The notes under the pieces: generated by a model
Database searches by the model: none
Seen by the model: the letters and a program-made list of their open reading frames with translations, nothing else
What the model was told of the DNA's origin: nothing
Part shown: positions 1 through 16,539 of the stretch, one piece after another
How the letters are laid out: each line of letters opens with the position of its first letter
Numbering within the stretch: the first letter of the stretch is position 1
Source: a virus
Taxonomy: Duplodnaviria > Heunggongvirae > Uroviricota > Caudoviricetes
Direction: 5' to 3' (one strand)
Length of the DNA: 16,539 nt
Virus record (IMG/VR): IMGVR_UViG_3300046327_000158
Location: 1 to 16,539 of that record
Made by a program: the position numbers and the translations under genes

Positions 1-917
1 TCCTTATACCCACTGTTCTTTAGTCTCTCTCTGTATTTTGGTGATTGTATATAATCTATAGTCCATTGCTGTTCATCTGATACCTTTTTTCCTCCTACTT
101 GGAATTGAAATTGGCTTTGACTCTGTGCTTGTTCTGCGGCTATTTGTTGGTATTCTGGTAAAGCTATACCTGGCATTTGGTAGTATGATTGATCAATGCC
201 TGGATCTTGTTGTTGTTCTTGTTGCTGCTGTTGTGAAGCTTGTATTTCAGCTAGGAAATCTTTTTCGTTTTGTTTTTGTAAAAGTTCCTCTTTTGCTGCT
301 TGGGCTTCTGTGTTTTTAGCAGATTCTTGGTATTCTGGAGCTGTTGTGTATTCTCCTGTATTTGTGTTTAAGTTTACATTTGTATTTACACCATAGTCTG
401 GCATATCATATCCTTGAAATCTTGCTCCTCCTAAATTACCTTGGTCTGAAGTACTAACCCCCATAGAACCAAGAATGCTTTTTAGTTTTTGTCCGTATTG
501 ATCATCTGTTGCATAACCTTCTCCAGATCTTGTTTTTGGGTTGTATCTCCAAATACTGCTTATTGCTTCGTCTACAGTGTTTGCATTTTTATATTTACTA
601 CCCCATTTTTTTATCCTATCATCTACTGCTTCATCTAATGTATTATAATCTCTAAACTTTGCCTTTGTTCTATAGGAAGACCCCCCAGAAACCTCTGTGG
701 TTGATTTTAAAGAACCTTGTTGGCTACTTGAAGCCTTTTGTCCAAAGTAATTATATTTTCCAGCAGGGCTTTTAAACCAGCCTGTCTCTAACGCAGCTTG
801 TGCTACAGTTAGCTCTGGATATCTATCCCCTCTATTTTTAGCTGTATTGTATAGTTGTTGTGCTTTTACCCACTGCTGATCACTAACATTACCCGGCCTA
901 GTTATATTGTCTGCCAT
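1..917 (-). CDS. Partial (runs off window start): N-terminal GH73 glucosaminidase/muramidase (FlgJ-like) domain protein, probable virion cargo/ejection protein
   Basis: Manual translation from ATG at 917 is open to position 1 (305 codons): MADNITRPGNVSDQQW...AQAALETGWFKSPAGKYNYFGQKA...FRDYNTLDEAVDD...GYATDDQYGQKLKSI, then a Gln-rich linker. AQAALETGW, NYFG and YATD are GH73 hallmark motifs. Confidence 0.85.
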   Translation of the reverse strand, partial: MADNITRPGNVSDQQWVKAQQLYNTAKNRGDRYPELTVAQAALETGWFKSPAGKYNYFGQKASSSQQGSLKSTTEVSGGSSYRTKAKFRDYNTLDEAVDDRIKKWGSKYKNANTVDEAISSIWRYNPKTRSGEGYATDDQYGQKLKSILGSMGVSTSDQGNLGGARFQGYDMPDYGVNTNVNLNTNTGEYTTAPEYQESAKNTEAQAAKEELLQKQNEKDFLAEIQASQQQQQEQQQDPGIDQSYYQMPGIALPEYQQIAAEQAQSQSQFQFQVGGKKVSDEQQWTIDYIQSPKYRERLKNSGYK

Positions 918-922
918 ATTGT

Positions 923-957
923 AAAAAAGTTATGCCCCCTAATTGTATTAAGGGGCA
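923..957 (-). terminator. Rho-independent terminator
   Basis: Minus strand UGCCCCUUAAU-ACA-AUUAGGGGGCA followed by UAAC-UUUUUU. The one non-Watson-Crick pair is a U-G wobble only in the minus orientation. Confidence 0.7.
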
Positions 958-996
958 AAATTAAGAAAATTTATTGAATTTACAAAATTAGTTAAA
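956..996 (-). promoter_or_regulatory. Putative Bacteroidota-type promoter (TTTG-N19-TAATTTTG), conserved motif copy 1
   Basis: Minus strand TTTAACTAATTTTGTAAATTCAATAAATTTTCTTAATTTTG; 35/41 identical to 10646-10686; lies upstream of the GH73 gene. Confidence 0.65.
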
Positions 997-1921
997 TTTC
1001 TGACTCATTAATAGTGAACTTTAAAGCTAAGCTATATCTACTATCTTTGTCGTAAGTAAGTCTATTTAAAAACCAGTCTCCTACCATTCTTTCTAGTAAA
1101 GCTTTTCCTTTAAAACTAACTGATGTTGTGTTTACAAATTTTTCTATTTGATTCTTATCTTGTAATAAAAATGGTATATTGCTAGTATTGCTTTTTACCC
1201 TGTTATAGAAATAATCATAGTTCCATTTAAAACCATCTGGGTTAGTTATCATAATATCCTGAGTATTGTTTATATTAGTCTTAGGATAGTTCTTAGAGTT
1301 AGCTGTTTTTGTTTTCTCCGGTATTAAGTTTAGATTACCTGAACATACTATATTATTGTAGATCATAGACTTATTAAATGTTAATCCTATACTAGTAGCA
1401 TAGTCATAATCATTGTGGTACCTTTTAGCCTCTGTCCATATTTGGACATTGTTTAAAGTCTTAGTTGCAAACTCTTCTTTTATAGGGTATTCTATCATAA
1501 AAGGTTGTTTTTTACCGTAGAATACTTGATAAGATTTGTTTGTAAGTAAGTGTGACCATAAACCAAATTCAGATACATCTGATGAATCATTTATACCGGT
1601 TTGGAAATAGTTGTTGTGGCTAATGTAATAGTTAGGCTTAAAGCTGTAAAAACTCATCCAAGAACCAAGTACAGGCGAGAAAGCCACAGTCCAAGAAACA
1701 TCTTCAAAGTTTTCAGGCGTTATCTCTATTGGTACAATTGAATTAGTTACTATTACAGGCACTGTTTCTACACAGTTGCAATGAGCATTGCCATCAGGAT
1801 GTACAACTAATGCACATCCTGGTGGACACTCTATTTCACTTAACACTGTTGTTTTTGTACATATTACTATACCGTCTACTGTAGACATTACATAATCTTC
1901 ACTTGGACAATTACAATTCAT
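992..1921 (-). CDS. Probable C-terminal part of the tail stabilization/muzzle protein encoded as a separate gene (309 aa)
   Basis: VSWTVAFSPVLGSWMSFYSFKPNYY...LWSH...VFYG...PFMIEY...RMVGDWFLNRL resembles the C-terminus of crAss-like stabilization proteins (recalled). Has a Cys-rich N-terminus and its own A-rich start context (AAAAATATAAAAATG). Confidence 0.65.
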   Translation of the reverse strand: MNCNCPSEDYVMSTVDGIVICTKTTVLSEIECPPGCALVVHPDGNAHCNCVETVPVIVTNSIVPIEITPENFEDVSWTVAFSPVLGSWMSFYSFKPNYYISHNNYFQTGINDSSDVSEFGLWSHLLTNKSYQVFYGKKQPFMIEYPIKEEFATKTLNNVQIWTEAKRYHNDYDYATSIGLTFNKSMIYNNIVCSGNLNLIPEKTKTANSKNYPKTNINNTQDIMITNPDGFKWNYDYFYNRVKSNTSNIPFLLQDKNQIEKFVNTTSVSFKGKALLERMVGDWFLNRLTYDKDSRYSLALKFTINESEI

Positions 1922-1939
1922 TTTTATATTTTTTTATTA

Positions 1940-4900
1940 CTATACTATTTGACCAGTACAGACATTTATTGTTATAGAATTACCGTTTGGACAATTGTTA
2001 TATATTGGTGTTGTACTTCCCCCTACATAAATTTTCATATTCGCTGCACTTGTATGACATGCACCGGTTACTCCACCATAATTATTCCATCCAGTTGTTT
2101 GATCACAATTTAGTGAGAAAGATACATCACCAGTTGTAGTTGTAGCTAATAATGCTGTAACTTGTGTAGGTGTAAGTGTAAACCTGTTATATCTATTTCC
2201 ATTACTTCCAGGCAATCCTGTAGCTGGGTTTATATTTAAGTTTGGTACACTTCCTGCATCACCCATGTCAGATGGTCCTCCAGTGTTAGACAAATATGCA
2301 AACCCTAAGTCTACACCATTTGCAATAAGTTTAAATGTAGCATGGCTACAAGAGTGTCCTGAACATCCTCCATCAAGTGTTTCCACATCTATCATAAAGC
2401 TATTTAAACAAGCTGTTATAGGTGGTGTTACTTCTACTATAAAGGTTGTTACATTTGTACATCCATTAGGTGCAGTAGCTGTTATAGTATACGTTGCTGA
2501 ACCTGCTTCTGTAGCAGATATTGTATCTGTTATTGAGTTACCTGTACCTGCTGTAGCTCCTGTTATACCTGTTGTTTGTGAGACAGTCCATGAGAATGTT
2601 GTTCCAGACAAACTGCTGCTTATCGCTATATTAGTTGTATCTCCACTTTCTATTCCTTGTGGGGAAGTAGGTGTAACTATTATGTTTGGTTGTGCATTCA
2701 CTGTAACTATTACTTGTACAGGTACTCCTTGACATCCGCTAACTATTTCAAAAGGTGTTACTGTATATGTTACAGTACCTGCTCCTGATAATGTTTGTGC
2801 TATTGCTAGGCCTGATCCAGATGATGCTCCTGTTACTCCAGAAGCTGAAGCTGTCCATGAGAAACTTACTCCTGGTTCTGTGCTTGTAAGTGCTACGCTT
2901 GTAGTATCTCCACTACATATTGTTTGAGGACTTACCTCTACATTTGCTGCACATATACACTCTGCTTCTACAGTCTCTATTAATACACATGTCTTATTTT
3001 CTGAATCATATTCCCATCCGTCTGGACAAAGGTTAACAGTTTCAGAATTTCTCTGACAAACATTCCCGACTAATGTATAACCTGCTGGGCAAGAGATTGT
3101 TGCTGGTTCACCATTACAAACAGTGTCGTCTATTACAAAACCTTGACCTTCAATATATTGTATACAATCATTTTTAGGTATGTAGTCTTTCTTAGTCAAG
3201 AACACTCTTCTATATCTACTATCCCAACCCATTGTAAGACCAACTCCGTTATAAGGGTTGTCTATATCTACATTAGGTAAGTGGTTTAGTATCTTAAATG
3301 GTAAGTGCTCTTTAAACCAGTTTCTCATTCCACTTTGTTTGTCACCTGCCATAGAAGATATTTCTACCATACCTTCTCCATTAGATGGTACCATTAATAC
3401 CTGTCCTCTCTGTGCATCCGCATAGAAATGTCCGTACTCATTAGATATAAACGTAGCATTTTGTGTACCACCATATCCTAATCTAGTGTTATGGAAAGAT
3501 GTAGATCTTCTTTGAAAGAAAGAGTTACCCCCCAATAAAGAAAGTGTAGGGTTTGACCCGTCATCTACTTTACTATCTACTTTGTTGTATAGTACTGCTG
3601 TATTTGCAAATCTAGCAAGTATTGCTTGTCCTTCTATATCAATGATATCTTTTAGTTTACCATAGTTTGAAGGAAATTCAAAAATATCTAATGGTCTATA
3701 TATTAACCAAGGATCGTATAGAGAATTCTCAGTACTATCCGGTAAACTTGCAATAATACCATTTGGCATATCTTGTGTACACTCGTTAAAAGCTCTTTCG
3801 TAAGTGTCTGACAATGTTCTTCTTCTAGTAAGCGATATCTGTTTTGAGTACTCTGTGTTGTACAAAAATACATTAGGCTCTCTAATAGATACTGACTCTT
3901 CTTGTGTCCATGCTCCTAAGTCTCCTACTAGTGGGTAAAAGTTTCTATTTAGTTCTTTTCCTCCGTATCTGTAGTTTGTGTTTATTCTAGTCTCTGCTAA
4001 AAAGTTTGTTATACCATAGTAGTATAAGTAGAACTTTGAAGGTGGTACTATATAGTTACCTGAGTCTGCAAGGTTGTCAAACACATAATCACTAACAATA
4101 TCTGGGAAAGCTTTTCCACCGCTTGAGAAATCTTTGTTTTGCTCATAGCTACAATAGAATTTAGGATTTTTACCTATGTTACTATAAAAGAAATAGTTAT
4201 AAGGTGTTAAATCTGCTTGTTTCATTGCAGTTACTAAAAACAACGGCATCTTTCTTTTAAGAGTATGTCTAGATATATAAGTATCTCCTCCAAAAATAGA
4301 TAGACATCCTGTAGAGGCATTTCTTAAATCTCCTCTAAAACCTGTAGATAACCATTTGATAGAACTTATTGTACCGTACTGTGTAGGCAAATAGTTTTTT
4401 ATAGCTGCATAAGGAGAAGCAATATTCTTTACCACTTCTGGGCTACGACCAATAGTATTATATCCTGCTTGTGATTGGTACGTTATACTAGCATCTGATC
4501 CTTTGTCATAAGTTTTGTAACCACTGTTTGGGTAAGATATTGGCATGTCTCCAAAAGATACTAGTACAGAGTTTTCTCTATCAATGTTATTGATATTTAA
4601 TCGCTCTCCTGTAACTTCATTTGTAGTTACAAATCTACCATCCTTTAGGTATTTAGTTACATGTAATCCTCTTATCTTATTACCTACTTCTTGTGAATTT
4701 TGTATGTAGTTGTAGAATCCATCTGCATAGTAGTAGTAAGCAAAATTATGTGGGCTTCCAAAATCTCTAAATATTTTTAACCATTCATATCTATATTGTC
4801 CAAATTTGAACACTATAGCTGTGGCTGTTTCAAGAATAGCTGCTGCTATAGTTGCTGCTGTTGCTATAGCTCCTCCAACTATATTTTGAGTAGCTCCACC

Positions 4901-7900
4901 ACCATTTGTCATTCCACCAAAAGCCCACCAACCAAAAGCATAACTTCCAGATCCTGCTGCTGCTATTTCTGCAGTTTTTATTACCGCCTCTGCTGTAACT
5001 TGTAGTCCTGCAAGTACATCTGCAAGGTTTCTTGCTTTATCTGATAAGATAACCCACTTAGGGTGTCCTTGTACTTCATCAAAGTGCCCTCTAGAATTAC
5101 CAAACATGTAACCTTGAATACTTAATTCTGAAGGTAGTCCTTGTCTGTAGTAATCTGTTTCTGGTGAATGAAATGTGTAGTTTCTATTTGATTGTCCAAA
5201 TGTAACACCATTTTCTGAAGATAAGTCTTCATCTAGGTTCATTACATCATTCTGGTAACTATTAAAAGGGTAGTTAGGGTAGTACACTGTTTTAGTGTTG
5301 TTCTCCTTGTACTTTCTCATATCGTATAACAACCCTGAGGCTACTACACTTCTATCTAGAGAGATATCCCCTCTAAATATTTCGTATCCAGATATCTTAT
5401 TTCTATCCTCTTGTGTAAGCAAGCCATTAAACACTGCTATATCTAAGAATGAATTTATTAGTTCTTCATTTATAGTTATACCTAGTGGATAAATAATACT
5501 ACTACCAAATGGACTCTGTTGAGCATTTGACATAAAAGGTACTAATTGATTATCTGGAAACTTAAAGTGTCTTATATTGGCACAAGTAAAGTTTGCATTA
5601 TCATTTAGTATGTATTTACCATTAGCTATACTTTTTACAAAAGCGTCCTCAAACTCACTTCTTAAATCAACTGGTATAAAGTTTTGAGGTATTGATAAAC
5701 TTCTTGAGTCATACAACTCAGGATTGTCTGGATAAGTTTCTTCACTTTCCCAGTACGCAAAATTACCTTTTTTAAATGGTATTGCTTTACAACTTTGTAC
5801 TATTGGTTGATTAAAGTTACAAGTTGCTTGGTATACTAATTTTTTATCTATTCTTATAGCGTCCCAAGATACATCTATTCTGCTAAACTCTATATCTCTT
5901 TTTGTAACTGTGTAGCAACTCTTTGTTGGGGTAACTAGGTATACAGTTTCTAGTGTTGTAATAAGCATGTCTGGATCTGTATCTATAGATCTAGTTGTGA
6001 TAGGTGCATCTACTACTACAAAGTATTTTTTATTTGAAGGCCAGCCATTAGGTATAGGTGGTATAGCTGTGCCTGATGAATCTTTTATTTTTAAAGTTGT
6101 TCCGTCTTTTTCAAAAAGCAACATCTCCCCAGAAGATAGATCTACTATCTTTGAGTATATAGCTGTTGCATCTGAGCAACTTTTGAATATAGAAACCCTT
6201 ACTTGTGACCCTGAATTTAAGTCGTCTGTATATGCTGTAACTTTTTGTTTACTTATGTCAACTATAAACTTACTTTTACCTTCAGTATCCCCCTTAAACC
6301 ATAGCCCACCTTTGTGTATCTTATTTAAGAAGTTTCCAGATATACCAGAAGCTGCAGGTGTTTTACTAGTCAGTAAGGAGTTTTGTGAAGATGCTACATA
6401 ATAATTATTAACTGCTCCTAAATTTAGATTATCTGAAGTATTTGTATAGTTAACTATCTCTGTTGCATATGCACAATCTTCATTTTCAAAATCTGAATCC
6501 CTTACATATACAGTTAGTGGTTGATCTTGCTGTCCTGGCTGATAGCCCAATATGTTGTTTGGATCCTGTGCCGGTTGAGTTGAGTCGTTATTTGGGTATA
6601 CATTACAATTTTTTGGTGCTCTAGCCACTACGTAGTTTGAAGGGAATATTTTCTCTATTTTCTCTGTTACTTCATTGGTTATATCTCCTATAACTATTTC
6701 TGGAACAACTGTAATATCGCTGCAATCCATATCTAAAAACGGATCAATGTCGCACTCTACAGCAGAGTAATCTGCTCCTAAAGCTGCACATATGTCTGTA
6801 CCTATAAATTCTGATGGACAATTGCCTTTATTATCTTCTATGTATTGAGCTAAGTCTATATAGTCTTCGTTATCAAGTTCGATGCTTATCGTACCTGATG
6901 CTACTGTTTCTACCTCTTCTACAATGCAAGTTTTTGTAATAGGTTCCGTAACTACTACTGTTTCTATACTATCATTTCCTTCGCATACAGTACTATCATC
7001 CAAAAAGGCTGTGTTATAAAACTGCCATCTTTTGTTTCTATTTACTGTATTACACTCTTGCTTGTTTTTTATTATAGATTCTATATCATCGTTTATGCCG
7101 ACTCCAGCTTCATTTACTACTAGCTCGTCTTCAAACAATAACATTTTTCTGCTTATCAATGGAAATATAGATGTCTCATATCCACCATCTAATAAAAATC
7201 GTATTGAAAATGGTACTACTTCATCTCTATTATAACCTAAGAATTTAGAGCTTAGTACTCCATTTTCATATAGGCTTTCTGGTGCAATGTGTGTTTGCCA
7301 TTGCATAAACTCACCAAGTAAGTTCATTACTGGTTGTAAGTTTATCTCTTTCTTTTGAGTTATACCGTATTGAAACAGTATATTATTTGATGCTGTAAGT
7401 CCTTCTGATCTTTCTACATTTAGTTGGTCTATGAGTAGTTTATCAAAGCTTGTAGCTAATTTATTTTGCTCAGTAGTATAAACTACAGTGTTGTCATTAA
7501 TTGTGTGTATCCCCTCTATGAAGTATCTAGAAGCCCCCTCAATGTCAGCTGTCTGTATTACAGCAACTTTATAGTGAGAGTACTTTTTATCTAATCCTGA
7601 TACAACAAGTCTTATAGCTAAGTTCGTTCTGTCAGCTAAGTTCTTTTGCTCTAGTATTCTATTGTTTTTATCAAATATCGCTATTGGGTTTGTTATAGAA
7701 TAGTATGGGGATATTTCATTACCTGCTGCATCTGAGTAAGCTATCAAGAACTCGTACATACCCATAGGTAATCTACCACCTAACTCTATAGTAGCTGGTT
7801 CAATTTTAGGTATGTTAAAAAGTTTGAAGATTCTTAGTTCATCATAGTTTATACAAGGGGTTGTAACATTGTCGTTACAAGGTACGTTTTGGTCATGGTA

Positions 7901-8521
7901 CTTACCGTCTAATAAATCTGTGATGTTTATGTGTCTTGGTACATTGTAGTCATCTGAGAAGTAGATATTTTTTCCACACTTCTCATTTTTTATAACTATC
8001 TTTTTTATTGGATGATCTACGCTAAAATTAAAGCCGGATCCTTTAACAAAAGGCATGCAGATATTTGTGGTTGGGTTTAAGTATCCATCCGCATCTGTAA
8101 GTAATGTTGTGTATGTTTGTAGTGGTAATTGAACTAAGTTCTCTAATGGCTCGGCCAACTGGTTTGCTTTATTACAGTCTTTGCAGTCAACCAGGATATC
8201 AGATATATCGTTAGTATTTTGGTTATCCTCTATAACGCCAAATTCCCCTACGCCAGTAGAGGGATTTGTTAAAAAGAAAAAAGTAGAGTTAGAATCAATG
8301 TCGTTTTCAAAACCTATAACTTTAAAACCTGCTTTAAACTTAGAAGCAAGTATGTTAGATTTCTCATTCGTTAGGTTAAAACTGTCTCCAGATTCACTTT
8401 CTATGTTAGCATTTAAGGCATGTGTATATTGAGCATCTGTTAATTGTGACGGATGAGTATCCTTCACCATTCCTGTCTTAGCAGAACTTAAATTTATTTT
8501 CTTATTCTGTTGTTGTGCCAT
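1940..8521 (-). CDS. Tail stabilization / muzzle-like protein (2193 aa) with Cys-rich repeats, two PKD/Ig-like domains and an unknown C-terminal domain
   Basis: Large ORF directly after a ring protein. Motifs GMVKDTHPS, YYSITNPIAIFD, RDEVVPFSIRF, WQFYNTA, YWESEETYP, FHSPET, GGDTYISR and FYADAQRG recall crAss-like Tstab/muzzle proteins. ICSGDTT...FSWT...VTYTVTP repeats resemble Bacteroidota PKD-like domains. Confidence 0.75.
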   Translation of the reverse strand: MAQQQNKKINLSSAKTGMVKDTHPSQLTDAQYTHALNANIESESGDSFNLTNEKSNILASKFKAGFKVIGFENDIDSNSTFFFLTNPSTGVGEFGVIEDNQNTNDISDILVDCKDCNKANQLAEPLENLVQLPLQTYTTLLTDADGYLNPTTNICMPFVKGSGFNFSVDHPIKKIVIKNEKCGKNIYFSDDYNVPRHINITDLLDGKYHDQNVPCNDNVTTPCINYDELRIFKLFNIPKIEPATIELGGRLPMGMYEFLIAYSDAAGNEISPYYSITNPIAIFDKNNRILEQKNLADRTNLAIRLVVSGLDKKYSHYKVAVIQTADIEGASRYFIEGIHTINDNTVVYTTEQNKLATSFDKLLIDQLNVERSEGLTASNNILFQYGITQKKEINLQPVMNLLGEFMQWQTHIAPESLYENGVLSSKFLGYNRDEVVPFSIRFLLDGGYETSIFPLISRKMLLFEDELVVNEAGVGINDDIESIIKNKQECNTVNRNKRWQFYNTAFLDDSTVCEGNDSIETVVVTEPITKTCIVEEVETVASGTISIELDNEDYIDLAQYIEDNKGNCPSEFIGTDICAALGADYSAVECDIDPFLDMDCSDITVVPEIVIGDITNEVTEKIEKIFPSNYVVARAPKNCNVYPNNDSTQPAQDPNNILGYQPGQQDQPLTVYVRDSDFENEDCAYATEIVNYTNTSDNLNLGAVNNYYVASSQNSLLTSKTPAASGISGNFLNKIHKGGLWFKGDTEGKSKFIVDISKQKVTAYTDDLNSGSQVRVSIFKSCSDATAIYSKIVDLSSGEMLLFEKDGTTLKIKDSSGTAIPPIPNGWPSNKKYFVVVDAPITTRSIDTDPDMLITTLETVYLVTPTKSCYTVTKRDIEFSRIDVSWDAIRIDKKLVYQATCNFNQPIVQSCKAIPFKKGNFAYWESEETYPDNPELYDSRSLSIPQNFIPVDLRSEFEDAFVKSIANGKYILNDNANFTCANIRHFKFPDNQLVPFMSNAQQSPFGSSIIYPLGITINEELINSFLDIAVFNGLLTQEDRNKISGYEIFRGDISLDRSVVASGLLYDMRKYKENNTKTVYYPNYPFNSYQNDVMNLDEDLSSENGVTFGQSNRNYTFHSPETDYYRQGLPSELSIQGYMFGNSRGHFDEVQGHPKWVILSDKARNLADVLAGLQVTAEAVIKTAEIAAAGSGSYAFGWWAFGGMTNGGGATQNIVGGAIATAATIAAAILETATAIVFKFGQYRYEWLKIFRDFGSPHNFAYYYYADGFYNYIQNSQEVGNKIRGLHVTKYLKDGRFVTTNEVTGERLNINNIDRENSVLVSFGDMPISYPNSGYKTYDKGSDASITYQSQAGYNTIGRSPEVVKNIASPYAAIKNYLPTQYGTISSIKWLSTGFRGDLRNASTGCLSIFGGDTYISRHTLKRKMPLFLVTAMKQADLTPYNYFFYSNIGKNPKFYCSYEQNKDFSSGGKAFPDIVSDYVFDNLADSGNYIVPPSKFYLYYYGITNFLAETRINTNYRYGGKELNRNFYPLVGDLGAWTQEESVSIREPNVFLYNTEYSKQISLTRRRTLSDTYERAFNECTQDMPNGIIASLPDSTENSLYDPWLIYRPLDIFEFPSNYGKLKDIIDIEGQAILARFANTAVLYNKVDSKVDDGSNPTLSLLGGNSFFQRRSTSFHNTRLGYGGTQNATFISNEYGHFYADAQRGQVLMVPSNGEGMVEISSMAGDKQSGMRNWFKEHLPFKILNHLPNVDIDNPYNGVGLTMGWDSRYRRVFLTKKDYIPKNDCIQYIEGQGFVIDDTVCNGEPATISCPAGYTLVGNVCQRNSETVNLCPDGWEYDSENKTCVLIETVEAECICAANVEVSPQTICSGDTTSVALTSTEPGVSFSWTASASGVTGASSGSGLAIAQTLSGAGTVTYTVTPFEIVSGCQGVPVQVIVTVNAQPNIIVTPTSPQGIESGDTTNIAISSSLSGTTFSWTVSQTTGITGATAGTGNSITDTISATEAGSATYTITATAPNGCTNVTTFIVEVTPPITACLNSFMIDVETLDGGCSGHSCSHATFKLIANGVDLGFAYLSNTGGPSDMGDAGSVPNLNINPATGLPGSNGNRYNRFTLTPTQVTALLATTTTGDVSFSLNCDQTTGWNNYGGVTGACHTSAANMKIYVGGSTTPIYNNCPNGNSITINVCTGQIV

Positions 8522-8532
8522 TATGGTTTTTA

Positions 8533-9396
8533 TTATAAATTAGGAAACATTCTTTCAAATCTATTAGTCTCTTGGATCATTTTCATCTTCAACTTATCCT
8601 GCCAATTTCTTCCTAGACCTTCAAATTTTACTTGTGTCATTGCAAGTCCAAAGTACTCTCTTTCTTGCTGTTTTATATACGTAAGTTTGTTTATTAAGTT
8701 GACATCATCGTCATTCATCCATAAACTTTCTAGTATCTTTCTTTTTACAAAGTACATAAGGTATTCCTGTAAACTTACCACATCTGGGATATAAAGATCA
8801 CCGGTCTCATCTGATGGTATTGCGTTATACTGCATGTATATATACCCCTTCTTGAAGTTAGCTTGTATCTTATTACCAACTATGTTTATCTCATGTTCTG
8901 CAGAGTGTGTTAGTTGACTTTGTAAGTTTTTGCAGCCTGGGCTACAGTATTCTTTTTTTATACCTTTTGTAAGCTTTAGTATAATTGGATTAGTATATCT
9001 AAAGTTTATAACAGTATTGTTATAATATTTCTTTTCTATTATTTCTTTGTAGTCTGTCTTCTTATGTGTACCAGACAAGTTATCCCAAGTATAGGTATTC
9101 TCTATCCTTTGTGTGTAGTATTGTGAATCTTGCACGTCTTGTCTTGTGCCTTTTTCAAACTCGTGGCTATCCTGTGTGCATTTTACAGCTAAGTGTAAGC
9201 TCCAGAAGTCTTCCGGTAAATCTACTTTACCATCTTCTACCTCTAAGACTTTTTCTGTAAGAGTTGTTATGTTCGCACCAAATCTCTTAAGCTCGCTTTT
9301 TATCCATAGATTTACTGATCTATAATCAATAAGACCTGATTCATCGTACTGTCTTAAGTCGGATAGTATTTCTGCTATTAGTTGCTTTCTAGTCAT
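8533..9396 (-). CDS. Tail tubular / ring protein (P22 gp4-like class), 287 aa
   Basis: Position immediately upstream of the stabilization gene. LPEDFWSL, IQANFKKGYIYMQY and IPDVVSLQEYLMYFVKRKI motifs recall crAss-like tail tubular proteins. Confidence 0.65.
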   Translation of the reverse strand: MTRKQLIAEILSDLRQYDESGLIDYRSVNLWIKSELKRFGANITTLTEKVLEVEDGKVDLPEDFWSLHLAVKCTQDSHEFEKGTRQDVQDSQYYTQRIENTYTWDNLSGTHKKTDYKEIIEKKYYNNTVINFRYTNPIILKLTKGIKKEYCSPGCKNLQSQLTHSAEHEINIVGNKIQANFKKGYIYMQYNAIPSDETGDLYIPDVVSLQEYLMYFVKRKILESLWMNDDDVNLINKLTYIKQQEREYFGLAMTQVKFEGLGRNWQDKLKMKMIQETNRFERMFPNL

Positions 9397-9411
9397 TACT
9401 TATATTTTTTA

Positions 9412-9954
9412 TTACAGGTCGTTACCTTGTTTTCTTAGTTTATTAAAAAATAGAGATGCGTTAAATGTATATTTTTTACCTGCCTTTAAGCTAATAGACA
9501 AGGCTTTCTTAACTTTCCTAGAAAAGCTATAATCAAATACCCACGGTTTAAATATGTTGTCTGTTTCGATAGGTACAAAGGCTAAGTTATATATCTTATT
9601 GTCTGTCCTTGGATTTAGCTTTATTGATCCATCAACTGGGTTGTGGGAGCTTTTATTATCCATTTCTTGTATTACCCCAAAATACCCTAGACCATCTACA
9701 AAGACTCCACCTGAAGACTCTGCTATTTTTTCACCTACTATCTCGTAAAATTTAGACACTATCTTTCCGTGCTCTATGTAATTCTCTACGTCTTCTAGGT
9801 TTGCAAGTTTAGAGTTATCTCTGTAGTATTGATAAGCTTTGTAGTCTCTTAAAGAGAAACTGCTTCCAAGATCACCAAGAGATTTCTTTCTACCCCTGCT
9901 TCTAAAAATATATCTAAAGGCTTCCTTAGTAAAAGGTTTACTAGGTGTCTTCAT
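9412..9954 (-). CDS. IHF/HU-like basic protein of the crAss-like tail module, 180 aa
   Basis: Lys-rich; FYEIVGEKIAESSGGVFVDGLGYFGV resembles the HU/IHF helix-turn-strand core; syntenic position beside the tubular gene. Confidence 0.55.
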   Translation of the reverse strand: MKTPSKPFTKEAFRYIFRSRGRKKSLGDLGSSFSLRDYKAYQYYRDNSKLANLEDVENYIEHGKIVSKFYEIVGEKIAESSGGVFVDGLGYFGVIQEMDNKSSHNPVDGSIKLNPRTDNKIYNLAFVPIETDNIFKPWVFDYSFSRKVKKALSISLKAGKKYTFNASLFFNKLRKQGNDL

Positions 9955-9956
9955 TC

Positions 9957-10625
9957 TTACTTCTCGTTATTGTTTAAATTAGGGTTTTCGTCTAATGCTA
10001 CTTGTTTTTTCATAGATACTTCTTTTACAGTCTCTGATATTATTAGCTCTTCTAACTTATCTGGGACTACAAAATCATATTCCCATAGGCTTTTACATCC
10101 TGGTTCGCTGCATGCTGATGCATCATCTATTTGGTCTAGGTCTACTGTAAGTAGGTATAAGTTTACAATTTGTATTTCTGTATCTAATAAGTATAGATAG
10201 CCGTCTTTTACGTAGTAGTTTATGTAGTCTGTTCCAGAAACCCTAGCTTTATCTCTTCTATACTGTGATGGTGTAGTAGATTTAAACTCTTTTACATCGT
10301 CAACTGTTGTAACCTCTTTAAGAGTGTTACCGTATCTGCTGTAAATAAGTTTAGGTAGTTTCTTTTTTGACTTCATTATAGAGTTACACTTTCTAAACTC
10401 TATGATATCACATTTTACTGATTCTATTCTTTCTAGCTCAAAACAATCTAGTGTTGTATATAGGTTATCTTCTCTAAATAAACTCCTGTCATTAAGCTTT
10501 TGTGATATATAAAATGTTGATTTTTGTTTTCCAACATGAAGTATATATCTACGTGAAATCCTGTCATCCTTAGATAACGAATTTAGTCCATTTAGTACTC
10601 TTGATGTAAATTCTGAATTAGTCAC
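9957..10625 (-). CDS. Second tail ring protein (222 aa; start corrected to GTG at 10625)
   Basis: The track start (10724) lies inside the terminator and upstream of the promoter. An in-frame GTG with A-rich leader (AAAACATATAAAAGTG) gives MTNSEFTSRVLNGLNSLSKDDRISRRYIL; C-terminal CKSLWEYDFVVPDKL recalls crAss-like ring proteins. Confidence 0.65.
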   Translation of the reverse strand: MTNSEFTSRVLNGLNSLSKDDRISRRYILHVGKQKSTFYISQKLNDRSLFREDNLYTTLDCFELERIESVKCDIIEFRKCNSIMKSKKKLPKLIYSRYGNTLKEVTTVDDVKEFKSTTPSQYRRDKARVSGTDYINYYVKDGYLYLLDTEIQIVNLYLLTVDLDQIDDASACSEPGCKSLWEYDFVVPDKLEELIISETVKEVSMKKQVALDENPNLNNNEK

Positions 10626-10645
10626 TTTTATATGTTTTAAGGTTA

Positions 10646-10686
10646 CAAAATTAGTAAAATTTTTTGTGTTTACCAAATTAGTTAAA
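10646..10686 (-). promoter_or_regulatory. Putative Bacteroidota-type promoter, conserved motif copy 2
   Basis: Minus strand TTTAACTAATTTGGTAAACACAAAAAATTTTACTAATTTTG, ending 20 nt before the GTG at 10625; same 27-nt spacing between the two TAATTT boxes as copy 1. Confidence 0.7.
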
Positions 10687-10692
10687 GATTTT

Positions 10693-10722
10693 AAAAAAGA
10701 AGAGGGGCCGAAGCCCCCCCTC
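10693..10722 (-). terminator. Strong Rho-independent terminator with C(UUCG)G tetraloop
   Basis: Minus strand GAGGGGGGGC-UUCG-GCCCCUCUUC-UUUUUU: 10-bp stem including two G-U pairs. Confidence 0.85.
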
Positions 10723-10731
10723 ACCCAACAG

Positions 10732-10758
10732 AAAAAAGAGGAAAACCAAAAACCTCTT
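10732..10758 (-). terminator. Weaker upstream hairpin, possible tandem terminator
   Basis: Minus strand AAGAGG-UUUUUGGUUUU-CCUCUU-UUUU, just after the stop at 10763. Confidence 0.45.
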
Positions 10759-10762
10759 ATCG

Positions 10763-11686
10763 TTATAGTACAGAAACCTTTGCGGCTTCTTGTACTTGTT
10801 GCCAGTAATACATACTAGCACTATTCTCTCTTATTTGTAAGTTATCTTTGTAAGGTAGTTTATTTATATAAGCGGCCTTGTAAAAAAGATCTTTATGATC
10901 TGGTCCAACACCTGCATTATGTAATATCCAATATTTATCAATGGACTCTAAACCATGTATGGTCCATCCAAAGTCAAGTCTAGGATCTACCTTTGTCTCA
11001 TGACCACTTAGCCAAGCGTTCCAAAGTAATGACCACATGCCGGCTGTCCACTTTTGTATAGGGTAATCAGCAGGGTGTTTTTTTACATGTAATGGTTCTT
11101 GTTTGCAAAAGTATTTGTATAGTTCTACACTGTCTTTTTCTACTTTTTCCCAAAATTCATATCCCTCACCAATTATTATATACTGTGCCCCTCCTGAATT
11201 ACTATTCATTAGCTTAGGTATTGTTTTATCTATACCTACTATTTCGCACATGCTTTCGTATACCTCGTTCCCTTTCTGTTGTATGTAGTCGTAGTTTATG
11301 TATGAGTTTGTATCACTCATGTACCATATTTTCTTATCTACTACCCATTGAACTTCCGGTGGTCTTGTAAAAACTATATCACTATCGTGTAAAAATAATC
11401 TCTCTTCTTTTAATTCTGGGTGAGCTTTCATGTGACTGCTCATAAGGTTGAAGTACACTGATGGTACATAGCTCTTATCTGCCCTACTATCATTATAGAA
11501 AAAGAATCTTACTGTGTTATAATGCTGTTGTAGTTTTATCCAATCTTGTGGTATGTGATTATTTTGTGTTGCACAAAGAATGTCAATTTTATTAGGGTTT
11601 ACCCCATGCTTTTTGAAGTTGTTTATAAGTACTTCTACTTGCCAGGTATAATAATTGCTGGCTGGTTGTGCACATATGTATCTCAT
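10763..11686 (-). CDS. GT-A fold glycosyltransferase resembling plant peptidyl-serine galactosyltransferase / Hyp O-arabinosyltransferase (GT96/GT95-like), 307 aa
   Basis: Ordered motifs NYYTWQVEVLINNFKKHG, LFLHDSDIVFTRP (DxD), NSGGAQY, WTAGMWSLLWNAW and WILHNAG parallel recalled SGT1 motifs (YFDWQTVGLMHSF, ILDADM, GG, WISEMYGY, LMHYG). Glycosyltransferase status is well supported; the family assignment needs a profile search. Confidence 0.7.
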   Translation of the reverse strand: MRYICAQPASNYYTWQVEVLINNFKKHGVNPNKIDILCATQNNHIPQDWIKLQQHYNTVRFFFYNDSRADKSYVPSVYFNLMSSHMKAHPELKEERLFLHDSDIVFTRPPEVQWVVDKKIWYMSDTNSYINYDYIQQKGNEVYESMCEIVGIDKTIPKLMNSNSGGAQYIIIGEGYEFWEKVEKDSVELYKYFCKQEPLHVKKHPADYPIQKWTAGMWSLLWNAWLSGHETKVDPRLDFGWTIHGLESIDKYWILHNAGVGPDHKDLFYKAAYINKLPYKDNLQIRENSASMYYWQQVQEAAKVSVL

Positions 11687-11691
11687 AACTA

Positions 11692-12375
11692 TTAATTTCT
11701 TTTTATTAAATAATTATTAGTAGTGGTATTTTTACCATGCACATTCCAAATAGTTTGATCTGCATTGTCTATTTCCTTGTGAATAAGACCAGCTTTCATC
11801 CATGCCTTTCTCCAAGCTACATCTTCCCAATCATTTCCTAATTCTTTTCTTGTCAAATTAATAATTTGATCTAATGCTTTTTTAGTAAAGGCAAAAGTCA
11901 TAGGCATGTGTGAGTTATCCTCTTTAGATATTCTTCCTAAGGTAGTATAACCACTCTTATTTTTTATAACTGTGAACCCATTTAACTGTGTTCCTACTTT
12001 AGAAGAGGCAATGTCTGCATCTGGGTTACTTTTAAAAAAGTCTACTAAGTTTTTTATATAATCTTTTTTATAGATATCATCGTCATCCATCTTTATGAAT
12101 AAATCATAATCTTGATAATTAGGTACTGATTTTATAGTGTCCATAGCATTATAGTGAGTGAAGCAAACTTTGTGGTTTATCTGCTCTGTATAAACTACTC
12201 TTGGATCTTTTATATCATCTATCAATACATTATTAAAAACTTGTTGAAAGTCATCAATTTTAAGACTTAGTGCAAATGTAAAATCTTTATATGTTTGGTT
12301 AAGTACATCTAGTAAAGTGTATCTTAACATTGCCCCCCTCTTGAAATGTGAGGGGGTAAATATTAGTACTTTCAT
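11692..12375 (-). CDS. Glycosyltransferase family 2 (GT-A), 227 aa
   Basis: MKVLIFTPS...LLDVLNQTYKDF N-terminus, IKMDDDDIY acidic motif and WEDVAW motif. Confidence 0.85.
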   Translation of the reverse strand: MKVLIFTPSHFKRGAMLRYTLLDVLNQTYKDFTFALSLKIDDFQQVFNNVLIDDIKDPRVVYTEQINHKVCFTHYNAMDTIKSVPNYQDYDLFIKMDDDDIYKKDYIKNLVDFFKSNPDADIASSKVGTQLNGFTVIKNKSGYTTLGRISKEDNSHMPMTFAFTKKALDQIINLTRKELGNDWEDVAWRKAWMKAGLIHKEIDNADQTIWNVHGKNTTTNNYLIKRN

Positions 12376-12392
12376 TTTTATTTATTTATTTA

Positions 12393-13619
12393 TTAAATAC
12401 AACCTGAGCCTTCTTGATCAAGAGTTACACTTATTGATGGATCTGTAGATAAATCTACTCCCGTAAACTCTACATAACCACTGCTTACTTGACATTGGCT
12501 ATATCCTGCAGATGTTGATACTCTTACTGGAGTATCTGCTCCATGAGAAGAGAATACTACTATTGTAGAAAAAGATGTTCCGGCATATACACCTATTGCT
12601 GATGCTCCTGGTGAAAGTGGGAAAGTGCCTAGTGGTACTATAATATCTGTTCCATCTACTTGTACATTGTTCAAATATGCATTAGCACCTGGAGAATTTA
12701 AGTTATAAACACTTATGTTTCCTTGGCTTGGTGCAGCTGTTGTTGTACTAGTTGTTGTAGTTGTTGTAGTTGTAGTCTCTTCTGGACATACTCCTGTTAC
12801 ATTCAAGGTTGCATCACCATTAGTCACTACGGTACCGTCTAAAGCACAGAACGTTGTAGAGTCATAACCGCTTGTACCTCCTATGCTAATTGATTGAGGG
12901 TTTCCTCCACAATCTGTATAATTAGCTCCTCCATTTGTATTTGTGCCTAATAAGTACTCAAGGCATTGTGCAGGTGGAGCTGTGGTTGTTGTTGTACTAG
13001 TTGTAGTAGTCGTAGGTGCAGCTGTTGTTGTACTAGTTGTAGTAGTCGTAGGTGCAGCTGTTGTTGTACTAGTTGTAGTAGTCGTAGGTGCAGCTGTTGT
13101 TGTACTAGTCGTAGTAGTGGTTGTATTACCTGAACAAGCTATTACAAATGGATATGATGCTTGGTGAGTTATTGTTTGCTCAGTAAGAGCAATCATTGTA
13201 CCTCCAAAATAATCATACAACTCTAATCTTATAGTAACTGTTCCAGATGCATTCGTCTCTGTATACTCTACTTGTGTTGGTGTATACATTGCTGTAGCTC
13301 CTGAAGATGCAACTGTAGATGCTTCTACGTAGTAACCAACAGGTGCTCCTGTTATATTAACTGGGAATATGATACCACATGTTGCATTATCATTACAATT
13401 TCCTGTTGATCTACAAATTGGTGTACCTGTTGCTATGTAAATAGAAGCTGGTGCAGCCGTAGTTGTGCTAGTTGTAGTACTAGTTGTTGTAGTCGTTGTA
13501 CTAGTTGTGGTTGTTGTAGGTGGTACAGTTGTCGTACTAGTTGTACTAGTAGTACTAGTAGTCGTAGTAGCAGGTATTTCCTCAGATAATCTGTATATAT
13601 TTCTTTTGAAATTTTTCAT
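12393..13619 (-). CDS. Thr-rich, mucin-like modular protein (408 aa), probable virion-decorating or fibre-associated protein
   Basis: Three poly-Thr/Ser blocks ending in AAP/APP separate three Cys-containing beta-rich domains. No hydrophobic signal peptide. Starts 2 nt after the fibre gene stop. Confidence 0.7.
   Translation of the reverse strand: MKNFKRNIYRLSEEIPATTTTSTTSTTSTTTVPPTTTTTSTTTTTTSTTTSTTTAAPASIYIATGTPICRSTGNCNDNATCGIIFPVNITGAPVGYYVEASTVASSGATAMYTPTQVEYTETNASGTVTIRLELYDYFGGTMIALTEQTITHQASYPFVIACSGNTTTTTTSTTTAAPTTTTTSTTTAAPTTTTTSTTTAAPTTTTTSTTTTTAPPAQCLEYLLGTNTNGGANYTDCGGNPQSISIGGTSGYDSTTFCALDGTVVTNGDATLNVTGVCPEETTTTTTTTTSTTTAAPSQGNISVYNLNSPGANAYLNNVQVDGTDIIVPLGTFPLSPGASAIGVYAGTSFSTIVVFSSHGADTPVRVSTSAGYSQCQVSSGYVEFTGVDLSTDPSISVTLDQEGSGCI
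12988..13095. repeat. Three exact tandem 36-bp repeats (coding PTTTTTSTTTAA phase), plus a degenerate fourth copy to about 13125
   Basis: Unit gttgttgtactagttgtagtagtcgtaggtgcagct at 12988, 13024 and 13060. Confidence 0.95.
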
Positions 13620-13621
13620 AG

Positions 13622-14719
13622 TTATGCTATTACATTACCTAGTAAATAAAAAGTTTCTGATGAAAGTTTCTTTTCAAGAAAAGCTTGATAGTTTTGCCCT
13701 TTTATTTTAAGCCCTGTAGCGGTGTTTATTGTAGTGCCTGAGGCAACAAATGTAACTAATCCTGTACCTTCTTGTACAAAACCCACTTCAAAGCCTATTG
13801 ATAATCCTGCAGGTACTGTAATTGTTACAGGTGAAGTTCCATTATCTATAAATATTGTATGTTCTACATCGCCATTTGTTAAGGTATAGTCTCCGGTAAT
13901 AACTTTTTGTAAGTTTCTTACTCCAAAGGTTGTACCTGATAAATACAAGCCCAGTCCTGCTGAGTATGTTGTATCAGTGTCAGTTGAGCTAACAGTGAAG
14001 TTAGGATAAGATCCGCTAACTGTTGTAGCCCCTGAACCTGCTATTGCAACTACTTGGTCTGGTGCTGTATTTGTTACTACATAAGGAGAAGCTATTGTAC
14101 CAGTTCCTGAAACAGATATTGCTGTACCTGCTGTAACTTTTGTTTCGCTTCCATCTACTGATACTGCAAAATCTATTTCGTTTGCCTCTTCTGTAATAGT
14201 TATTGTACCATTTTGAGATTTTAGTCTTTTAAAGCTTAAGTTTACATTGTCTCCAGTTCTAATTGCATTTTTGTATACACCAGCTCCTGTACCTACATTT
14301 GATGCAGAGTATGTTATCTGGTTATCTTGTATAAAGTCTTTTAGTATTACTACATCTAGTCCTATTTCTATTTCTTTATCGTCTGTTGACAAATCTACTG
14401 TTATAATAGTGTTTGATGGTGTAATAGATCTAATCTCTTTTCTACCAATTCCATCTACTCCTTTATATACTCTAGTTCCTTGACCAACACTTATTAAACT
14501 GAAAGAGTTTGCTAATTGATTTGATAAATCACAAAGGTATGTGTCTAATTGACCAAAGGCTTCTGTTAAAAGCGTTCCTGTTTTTATTTCAGTGCAAGGT
14601 AAATCCTCACCTGTATAAAGTACACAATCTGTGCTTAAGTCTTTAATTGGACAAGCACAATCAACTGTTTGACATGATGATGTACATATTGTATTCGTTG
14701 TTCTTCCGCAGTTACACAT
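13622..14719 (-). CDS. Tail fibre-like protein (365 aa)
   Basis: Cys-rich N-terminus (CACPIKDLSTDCVLYTGEDLPC), repeated VGQG/VGTG..VYK...FKRLKS segments, VTAGTAISVSGTGT stalk motifs, and a C-terminal YTL..GD...TITVP...QEGTGLVTF...FYLLGN beta-sandwich common in phage fibres. Confidence 0.65.
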   Translation of the reverse strand: MCNCGRTTNTICTSSCQTVDCACPIKDLSTDCVLYTGEDLPCTEIKTGTLLTEAFGQLDTYLCDLSNQLANSFSLISVGQGTRVYKGVDGIGRKEIRSITPSNTIITVDLSTDDKEIEIGLDVVILKDFIQDNQITYSASNVGTGAGVYKNAIRTGDNVNLSFKRLKSQNGTITITEEANEIDFAVSVDGSETKVTAGTAISVSGTGTIASPYVVTNTAPDQVVAIAGSGATTVSGSYPNFTVSSTDTDTTYSAGLGLYLSGTTFGVRNLQKVITGDYTLTNGDVEHTIFIDNGTSPVTITVPAGLSIGFEVGFVQEGTGLVTFVASGTTINTATGLKIKGQNYQAFLEKKLSSETFYLLGNVIA

Positions 14720-14740
14720 TTTTATTTATTTTTTATTTGT

Positions 14741-15955
14741 TTATAATATTGTTGTTGTGCTAGTTGTTATACCGCTACATGGTTGTGATGATGTTATGAC
14801 ACCATTAGAAACTGTGTATACGTTTACGTTATCTGTTAAATAAGTGTAATTCAATGGTATTGGTTGATTTGTATCTACTGTTGCACTGTATACACTAACC
14901 CCAGGCATCAAAGAAGTGTGACCAGTATCTAAGGTTATACCATTTAGATAAAATTCGCTACAAGGTAATAACTCATTTCTAACTTTTGTAGAGTGTAAGA
15001 GATAACGTGCAGTATCTACAAACCGGCCTATGTTATCTGTAATAACACCATTTTCTACTTTCCAAATCCATGTATATGGGTTTATGTTATATTGATCTGG
15101 TACGTTTGCAATTAGATATTTTAAAGGAAAAGTCCATTGTTGTGTACATTGTTGATCCATGTAAATTGTTGTACCTACACCTAAGAATTGACCGTTTGGT
15201 ATATGTGTGTATTGGCTATAGTCATATGCAACTGTCCAATACTTACCTGCTTCTGGTCCATCTATGTTATAAAGTGCTGTTCCTACTGGGTTATCCATTA
15301 TACGAGAATATAACGTAGGATTTATCATATTGGTTGTTGTACTAGTTGTTGTACTTGTTGTGCCTGGGCAACCACAGCTTTGAGAGGCTCCTCCAGCATC
15401 AACTAATGTTGCCATATAGAAAGGTGCTGATGAAGATAGTATATTAAAGAAAAAGATATTACCGTTAATAGCACGGGGTACCCAATCCCCAATAGATAAA
15501 GGTGTTACCGTTTTTATTATCACATTAGTGCCAACAACATAATCACAATTTGGGCATGCATACTGATTAGCTACATAGTAATAAAATGGATCTGTAGTTG
15601 TTGTACTAGTGGTAATAGGAGTAGTAGTAGTTGTAGTGGTTGTAGGACAACAAGCTTCTACTTGTGATTGTATAACTTCTAGTGTTACTAAGCTTTGTTC
15701 TAAAGCTACTTGCAACTGTTCTATAAGAAGTTGTTGGTCTCTGTTTTCTTCTTCTAAAGCTACTATATCTGAATTAGCTGCTACAAGACTTCTAACTATG
15801 TATTCTAATATCACTGCTAAACTTGCAGTATTTTGTGTACCTAAGTATTCTATTGCTAGACCATAAAAGATACAATTTGTTAGTAAGGACCCCTGAATGC
15901 AGGGATCCTCTTGTGTATTTAAAATTGGTATATTTGTTTGATTACATCCTTCCAT
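14741..15955 (-). CDS. Coiled-coil plus Thr-linker modular protein (404 aa), probable fibre/adhesin
   Basis: N-terminal about 105 aa paralogous to 15986-16303 and ending in CCP, followed by three Thr blocks flanking two variable regions. Confidence 0.65.
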   Translation of the reverse strand: MEGCNQTNIPILNTQEDPCIQGSLLTNCIFYGLAIEYLGTQNTASLAVILEYIVRSLVAANSDIVALEEENRDQQLLIEQLQVALEQSLVTLEVIQSQVEACCPTTTTTTTTPITTSTTTTDPFYYYVANQYACPNCDYVVGTNVIIKTVTPLSIGDWVPRAINGNIFFFNILSSSAPFYMATLVDAGGASQSCGCPGTTSTTTSTTTNMINPTLYSRIMDNPVGTALYNIDGPEAGKYWTVAYDYSQYTHIPNGQFLGVGTTIYMDQQCTQQWTFPLKYLIANVPDQYNINPYTWIWKVENGVITDNIGRFVDTARYLLHSTKVRNELLPCSEFYLNGITLDTGHTSLMPGVSVYSATVDTNQPIPLNYTYLTDNVNVYTVSNGVITSSQPCSGITTSTTTIL

Positions 15956-15985
15956 GGTTACTTCTAGGTTTTTTTAATATTATTT

Positions 15986-16303
15986 TTATTCTGGACAACA
16001 AGTAGCTAAGATAGCTTGTATATCAAAGATTACTTCTTGTATTTGAGTTACTTGTTCTTGAAGATTTGTTATTTGAATTGCTTGTTGTGCATTCTCTTCT
16101 TGTAGTTGTGTAACTCCAGTATTGTTACTTTGCAAAGATAAAACTATTGCTTGTATGATAGAGGTCAAGTTTTGATTATCCTCTATAAAAAGATATGTTA
16201 TTGGCTCCGTGTGTACAACACAATCTGTTGAAGTGTGTAGTCCATTACATGGATCTTCTTGTTGTACTATAACCGGAGTGGTCATTTGACTGCATGTTCC
16301 CAT
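15986..16303 (-). CDS. Stand-alone Cys/coiled-coil domain protein (105 aa), paralogue of the N-terminus of the next gene
   Basis: Shares QEDPC, T.C, I.YL, IV.SL, L.EEN and IQ....CCP with the 404-aa protein. Confidence 0.7.
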   Translation of the reverse strand: MGTCSQMTTPVIVQQEDPCNGLHTSTDCVVHTEPITYLFIEDNQNLTSIIQAIVLSLQSNNTGVTQLQEENAQQAIQITNLQEQVTQIQEVIFDIQAILATCCPE

Positions 16304-16307
16304 AGTA

Positions 16308-16539
16308 TTAAGGTGTTTGTGTGTTGTCTAATAAATATTGAAGAAGTTCTCCTAAAGTATTTATAGGGGAATTACATTGGTCTACTAATCCAGAAAGGTC
16401 TAAGCACTCTGTTATGATTTTGTCGCATATTGCTTCATTCTCTAAGTACTCCACTCTTTGTTTTAGTGAACATATTTCCTCTTCATACTTAATTAATACA
16501 TTTTTTACAATGTTTTTATTATCTTCTTGAACATAAGTA
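16308..16539 (-). CDS. Partial CDS (3' end) of a Cys/coiled-coil structural protein
   Basis: Manual translation TYVQEDNKNIVKNVLIKYEEEICSLKQRVEYLENEAICDK...LVDQCNSPINTLGELLQYLLDNTQTP*, stop at 16308-16310; 5' end is outside the window. Confidence 0.7.
   Translation of the reverse strand, partial: TYVQEDNKNIVKNVLIKYEEEICSLKQRVEYLENEAICDKIITECLDLSGLVDQCNSPINTLGELLQYLLDNTQTP

Follow-up and report, generated by a model that had tools for sequence, protein, structure and literature searches.

A soluble GT-A glycosyltransferase family encoded beside poly-threonine virion proteins in crAss-like and other phages: a candidate system of virion O-glycosylation

Described glycosylation systems and the present locus

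Glycosylation of phage particles by the phage's own enzymes has been described in mycobacteriophages. According to two papers that summarise Freeman et al. 2023 (PMC12363180, PMC13313380), phage-encoded glycosyltransferases of Che8, Corndog and Myrna modify their own capsid and tail-tube proteins, and glycosylation of the virion alters antibody recognition. In the papers found, self-glycosylation of the particle has been shown experimentally for only a few mycobacteriophages (PMC12363180, PMC13313380). A different kind of system is found in plants and algae, where HPAT (GT95) and SGT1 (GT96) attach the first sugar of an O-glycan straight to side chains of repetitive, extended peptide sequences. 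The two families have been described as related (PMC8012813), and GT95 is predicted to be of the GT-A type (PMC8476585).

Here we analysed a stretch of 16,539 nucleotides (hereafter the window), corresponding to positions 1 to 16,539 of the 80.5-kb IMG/VR record IMGVR_UViG_3300046327_000158. The window represents the tail module of a crAss-like phage. It encodes a 307-aa enzyme for which we propose the same role that HPAT and SGT1 play on their own substrates, and which probably coats the particle of the phage with sugar. Comparative genomics gives good support to the reading that a new enzyme family glycosylates the phage's own virion at a new kind of acceptor tag. As in the mycobacteriophage system, transferase genes lie in or beside structural genes, and methyltransferases accompany those of related actinophages. 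In contrast to that system, the proposed acceptor signature is poly-threonine (poly-Thr), the phages are crAss-like or infect Bacteroidota and Bacillota, and the spread is much wider, all of them new features. No match to the mycobacteriophage enzyme families came up in searches with the 307-aa family. Of the systems already described, virion glycosylation in mycobacteriophages comes nearest by function, the retaining GT8, GT77 and GT24 enzymes by structure and, below threshold, HPAT by Pfam sequence.

The 307-aa enzyme, its fold and its likeness to plant transferases

An earlier note made from the sequence had placed a 307-aa protein at 10763-11686. The gene is present there as an ORF of 307 aa running from ATG to stop, but on the minus strand (10763..11686); the plus strand in this stretch is full of stops. 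That note had also listed motifs in the order of the plant and algal enzymes. Their presence and order were confirmed (YYTWQ at residues 12-16, HDSD at 100-103, GGAQY at 165-169, WTAGMW at 213-218 and LH at 255-256) and are conserved in the family, but the LH, described as terminal, lies inside LHNAG, 51 residues before the C-terminus. In an alignment of 54 representatives with 30-54% identity to the query, W15, D103, G166, M217, W218 and H256 are invariant, and Q16, D101, Q168 and W213 are conserved in at least 90% of the sequences. D101 and D103 of the DxD motif, together with H256, G259 and K270, are invariant or nearly so. The motifs fall on the columns in which the family varies least and are therefore real, not a chance pattern. 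The enzyme is a member of phrog_4417, a family of 'unknown function' (E 1.6e-70, with positions 1-291 of the 293-position profile aligned to residues 1-301), and profile searches assigned it to no Pfam or NCBIfam family. The absence of a transmembrane anchor, also claimed earlier, holds: the highest 19-residue Kyte-Doolittle mean is 0.47, as for a soluble protein.

The AlphaFold2 model, computed with the 54-sequence alignment as input (pLDDT 97, pTM 0.93), has the Rossmann-like fold and DxD metal/nucleotide-sugar motif of the GT-A type. Its closest solved structures are GT8, GT77 and GT24 enzymes, with AgtA and GlyE among the top matches, and the matches among viral models beyond the enzyme's own family are of GT8 type. 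These enzymes (glycogenin, LgtC, GlyE, AgtA and the UGGT catalytic domain) differ from it in sequence, sharing only 5-16% identity. The 307-aa protein does not match the CAZy GT8 profile (PF01501), no Pfam GT8 or GT77 match occurs in about 260 family members, and no glycosyltransferase emerged from PDB sequences when either the protein or the family profile served as query, the best profile match being a repeat artefact. A064R of the chlorovirus PBCV-1, which acts in capsid glycosylation, matches less well than GT8 and GT77 and comes from a eukaryotic virus; the glycans of PBCV-1 are N-linked. The DxD, an NSGG segment, Q211, H256-x-x-G259 and K270 resemble what we take to be the metal- and diphosphate-binding pattern of GT8. 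Judged by its structural neighbours, the enzyme is most likely retaining.

The family is large and mainly phage-borne. A word-indexed search returned 1652 matches, all 'hypothetical', and an exhaustive search gave 823 clusters at 50% identity. Among GenBank phage records, 75 carry a member (Enterococcus, Lactobacillus, Staphylococcus, Lactococcus, Clostridium and Chryseobacterium), hypothetical or unannotated in every record listed; cultured carriers include Enterococcus phiFL1/2, Lactobacillus Semele and Iacchus, Staphylococcus PMBT8 and Chryseobacterium MA9V-3. The literature searched contained no description of phrog_4417 or of the poly-Thr pairing reported below. Fusions seen among relatives join the domain to GT2, Glyco_transf_7C, GT6, GT29, GT25, methyltransferase or radical-SAM domains, combinations that place it in multi-step glycan assembly. 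Other phages often encode a SAM methyltransferase or a GT2/7C enzyme directly downstream of it.

The earlier note had proposed an SGT1/HPAT-like motif order. The link to the plant enzymes is weak and tentative: a few relatives match the HPAT profile (PF23452) collinearly below threshold and neighbours of the protein carry the label, but the 307-aa protein itself is unmatched at E up to 1, also in a six-frame search of the genome. About 3 of some 260 relatives give sub-threshold matches, none of them at the curated cut-off of 23.9 bits; in two sets of representatives, 2 of 54 and 2 of 77 match. The best is P0157 (21.9 bits, E 1.3e-4), whose residues 9-242 align collinearly, over almost the whole length, with profile positions 9-230 of 307. 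Among its homologues, P0157 is the only one of 65 subfamily members to match PF23452; none of 10 remote relatives does so, and the homologue lists contain no PF23452 labels. Of the GT-like Pfam families, only HPAT and DUF6492 gave two matches to the catalytic domain, and Stealth_CR2 was matched once, more weakly. Among the language-model neighbours of the protein PF23452 is the commonest Pfam label, carried by a share of the members in 19 of the 30 named clusters. A search for PF23452 in 401 Bacteroidota genomes and five bacterial genomes with relatives gave no match, which has little weight since 14 control genomes also gave none. By structure, the best PDB matches are GT8, GT77 and GT24, in a set of matches that included no GT95/GT96 structure for comparison.

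In domain length (about 300 residues) the enzyme is like HPAT and SGT1. It differs from these membrane-anchored Golgi enzymes, which act on hydroxyproline (Hyp) or on the Ser of Ser-Hyp4, in having no hydrophobic segment that could serve as an anchor, in giving no significant match to PF23452, and in a genomic context that implies a poly-Thr acceptor. The HPAT signal is faint and specific, consistent with remote homology and short of family membership, and a distant evolutionary link to plant GT95/GT96 is possible. If the signal holds up, it would bear on the origin of the plant families that glycosylate extensins.

Poly-threonine proteins beside the enzyme

All long ORFs of the window are on the minus strand. 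In the order of transcription, fibre-like proteins come first, followed by a GT2-like glycosyltransferase and the 307-aa enzyme. The fibre-like group includes a protein of 105 aa (15986..16303, minus strand) with a BLAST match to the adjacent 404-aa protein, the N-termini of the two, which contain Cys, being alike by eye. The 404-aa protein (14741..15955, minus), our candidate for a second acceptor, has poly-Thr at residues 104-113 and 199-208 and a shorter Thr-rich stretch at the C-terminus. A 365-aa fibre-like virion protein (13622..14719, minus) lies between the two poly-Thr proteins, and its C-terminal part matches phrog_21510 (E 2.9e-10) and phrog_18179, a 'virion structural protein' (E 3.7e-8). 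The first candidate acceptor, of 408 aa (12393..13619, minus), has four Thr-rich tracts (residues 16-31, 33-59, 166-217 and 282-298) with TTTTTSTTTAAP-type repeats. Its gene ends 17 nt before that of the 227-aa GT2-like protein (11692..12375, minus; PF00535 at 26.4 bits with a cut-off of 23.3, E 7.4e-6), a putative glycan extender, which is in turn separated from the 307-aa gene by 5 nt. About 40 nt past the stop codon of the latter, a strong intrinsic-terminator-like hairpin on the same strand (10699..10722; 10 pairs, seven of them G-C, then a T run) closes the fibre-GT2-glycosyltransferase unit. Just downstream of the enzyme are two ring proteins, 1 (PF24228, E 1e-17) and 2 (PF25702, E 1.7e-25), then a 2193-aa protein and a FlgJ-type muramidase. 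In the whole record poly-Thr is essentially confined to the 408-aa and 404-aa ORFs, a third ORF having a single short run.

To define the pairing, a poly-Thr run was taken as six or more consecutive T/S residues, of which at least five are T, and genes were called mechanically. Eighty IMG/VR loci with a relative at 44-97% identity formed the viral set. Poly-Thr is encoded on the same strand by the gene immediately upstream of the enzyme in 60 of 79 loci, and by one of the two upstream genes in 68 of 79, raw counts that overstate independence, as the loci are phylogenetically related. Downstream of the enzyme, 3 of 409 genes have poly-Thr. The background is about 0.2-0.7% of genes, with 3 of some 1280 genes in 80 phage loci that were selected by a gene unrelated to the enzyme. 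In the viral loci the tracts are composed of 59% T, 12% S, 7% P and 6% Ala. BLAST sorts the upstream proteins into at least 14 clusters, although single linkage chains 70 of them into one and their independence is accordingly limited, and in roughly 14-24% of loci no poly-Thr gene stands just upstream of the enzyme.

An independent set of 80 bacterial-genome loci splits into single-domain and fused (>400 aa) enzymes. In the 49 loci with a single-domain enzyme, mostly Bacillota prophages, the upstream gene has poly-Thr in 36 of 46. In the Bacillota prophages the enzyme is flanked by the major tail protein on one side and by the tail chaperone (PF23857) on the other, as the family gene is in Enterococcus phage phiFL2A, and the upstream protein is usually a tail protein of about 210 aa with a pure Thr tail at the extreme C-terminus. 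The gene at position -6, which encodes about 390-400 aa and occupies the major capsid position in the module, has poly-Thr in 70% of these loci. In L093, L096, L101, L105, L107, L110 and about 25 more Bacillota loci, the prophage major tail protein (about 205-227 aa) encoded immediately before the glycosyltransferase ends in a conserved F-G-x-x-Y/H-P followed by the pure poly-Thr tail, and this tail with its enzyme would make a compact natural 'tag plus enzyme' pair.

As a negative control, the fused forms of more than 400 aa from Chitinophaga, Pedobacter, Mucilaginibacter and Sphingobacterium chromosomes have a poly-Thr neighbour in 1 of 31 cases. In these chromosomes the domain forms the N-terminal half of proteins of 500-590 aa without poly-Thr neighbours (L097-L100, L109, L113, L118, L128, L137, L139 and others), which are presumably enzymes of cellular glycan synthesis. 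Because these cellular members lack poly-Thr neighbours, the family is not intrinsically protein-specific.

The presence of the enzyme was also compared among crAss-like relatives identified with ring protein 2, a small comparison of eight relatives at 42-100% identity. Only L164, which is the same phage, has the enzyme, the GT2 gene and the poly-Thr tracts. The seven other relatives have no enzyme in the 10-20-kb loci examined, and in five of them the family profile found no copy anywhere in the record, with a positive control run and three of the records at least 90% complete. These seven encode homologous fibre genes without poly-Thr, except for the giant protein of L166; in L165, for instance, the homologue of the 404-aa protein has none. 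The exception to the pairing, L166 (IMGVR_UViG_3300042322_000140), has no glycosyltransferase and carries its poly-Thr run in a 2411-aa homologue of the giant protein.

Proposed function, alternatives and further genes of the tail module

We consider it likely that the 307-aa protein is a cytoplasmic, DxD-metal-dependent GT-A enzyme, probably retaining, that puts the first sugar on Thr/Ser of the poly-Thr linkers in the 408-aa and 404-aa proteins, with the GT2-like enzyme extending it. The arrangement expected of phage virion self-glycosylation, a transferase in the structural module beside virion proteins with Ser/Thr-rich tags, is found here. The enzyme would be expressed together with the late tail and fibre genes and would draw on a host nucleotide-sugar as donor. 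Possible benefits are stiff, protease-resistant linkers, shielding and adhesion. A protein acceptor is most likely, as the gene neighbourhood suggests; the Thr linkage site, the donor sugar and any benefit are likewise proposals. The enzyme family and its simple, easily recognised poly-Thr signature suggest that virion O-glycosylation is widespread among phages that infect Bacteroidota, Bacillota or marine bacteria, crAss-like ones among them. If so, it would affect contact of the particles with mucus, proteases and immune systems, and a small soluble enzyme with a short tag would be available for protein glyco-engineering.

The acceptor might instead be something other than protein: a host surface polysaccharide, LPS or teichoic acid, modified for superinfection block or receptor remodelling, or phage DNA, with the poly-Thr pairing reflecting hitch-hiking in mobile fibre modules. 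The fused Bacteroidota relatives, which stand among other enzyme-sized genes, are in keeping with such a role, as are LgtC and WbbM, polysaccharide/LOS enzymes that are also among the structural neighbours. However, the pairing recurs with unrelated types of acceptor (fibres, major tail proteins and genes at the capsid position) in unrelated phages, and in the recurring pairings the enzyme is always directly downstream on the same strand. Enzyme and poly-Thr are moreover lost together in close crAss-like relatives, the protein lacks a membrane segment, and its gene belongs to a late structural operon that ends in a terminator. We regard a non-protein acceptor as unlikely.

A second question is which of the two transferases acts first. 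In this window the GT2 gene separates the 307-aa gene from the poly-Thr gene, and the initiating role of the 307-aa enzyme is one that we infer from other loci. Here the GT2-like protein could instead take the first step and the 307-aa enzyme do no more than extend the glycan, like its top structural matches GlyE (GT8) and AgtA (GT77), which lengthen glycans on already glycosylated proteins. Against this order, homologues of the 227-aa GT2 occur beside the family in 4 of 80 viral loci only, whereas in 60 of 79 it is the 307-aa family on its own that comes straight after the poly-Thr gene, and in the Bacillota prophages the direct flanking by tail protein and tail chaperone leaves no room for a second transferase. 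Initiation by the GT2-like protein thus appears distinctly improbable, and since the 307-aa family alone accompanies poly-Thr in most loci, it is the family to which we assign the initiating step.

The remaining alternative returns to the plant enzymes. A 235-aa 2OG-Fe(II) oxygenase is encoded at record positions 16907-17614, just outside the window (PF13759 at 27.3 bits; phrog_81 E 1.4e-16). The enzyme could then be a viral member or sister of HPAT/SGT1 (GT95/GT96) acting on Hyp, formed from the Pro of TTTAAP repeats by this oxygenase, which lies about 5 kb upstream in the same late block. The oxygenase was rejected as a conserved partner: the enzyme is present in 2 of 80 oxygenase loci, both from the phage of this window, and the oxygenase in 1 of 80 enzyme loci. 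As the two rarely co-occur, a Hyp-directed mechanism is unlikely as the function of the family, and for the present enzyme we give it little credence. A broader proposal keeps the poly-Thr acceptor. It holds that the family is a widespread phage/bacterial sister of plant GT95/GT96 that initiates 'poly-threonine tag' O-glycosylation of capsids, tail tubes and fibres in many unrelated phages (crAss-like phages, Bacillota siphophages and marine phages), to which in this phage the prolyl-hydroxylase-like oxygenase might add a Hyp-based layer. This we put forward tentatively, as a possibility on the doubtful side.

Upstream of the oxygenase, also on the minus strand (record 17616-20282; L083:1317-3983), are two ORFs of 268 and 295 aa without a family match and one of 327 aa that matches DUF6734 (E 2.4e-11); the three may belong to the same modification cluster. 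On the other side of the 307-aa gene, the GTG start called for ring protein 2 (10724) falls inside the terminator hairpin, and the Pfam match begins at residue 39, so that the true start is probably further downstream. A 309-aa protein (992-1921, minus), 3' of the 2193-aa gene, aligns with profiles of giant virion proteins over no more than their last 240 or so positions (phrog_37948, positions 2048-2286 of 2289, E 2.9e-62), and so resembles the C-terminal module of a giant virion protein encoded as a gene of its own. Short N-termini containing Cys are alike by eye in the fibre-like proteins of 365, 404, 105, 145 and 309 aa (13622-16303 and record 16308-16745), and may be an attachment module that alternative fibres share. 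The FlgJ-type muramidase/endolysin-like protein with which the tail module ends (3-917, minus; TIGR02541 E 1.3e-14, phrog_3513 E 9.3e-25) may be a virion-associated cell-wall hydrolase.
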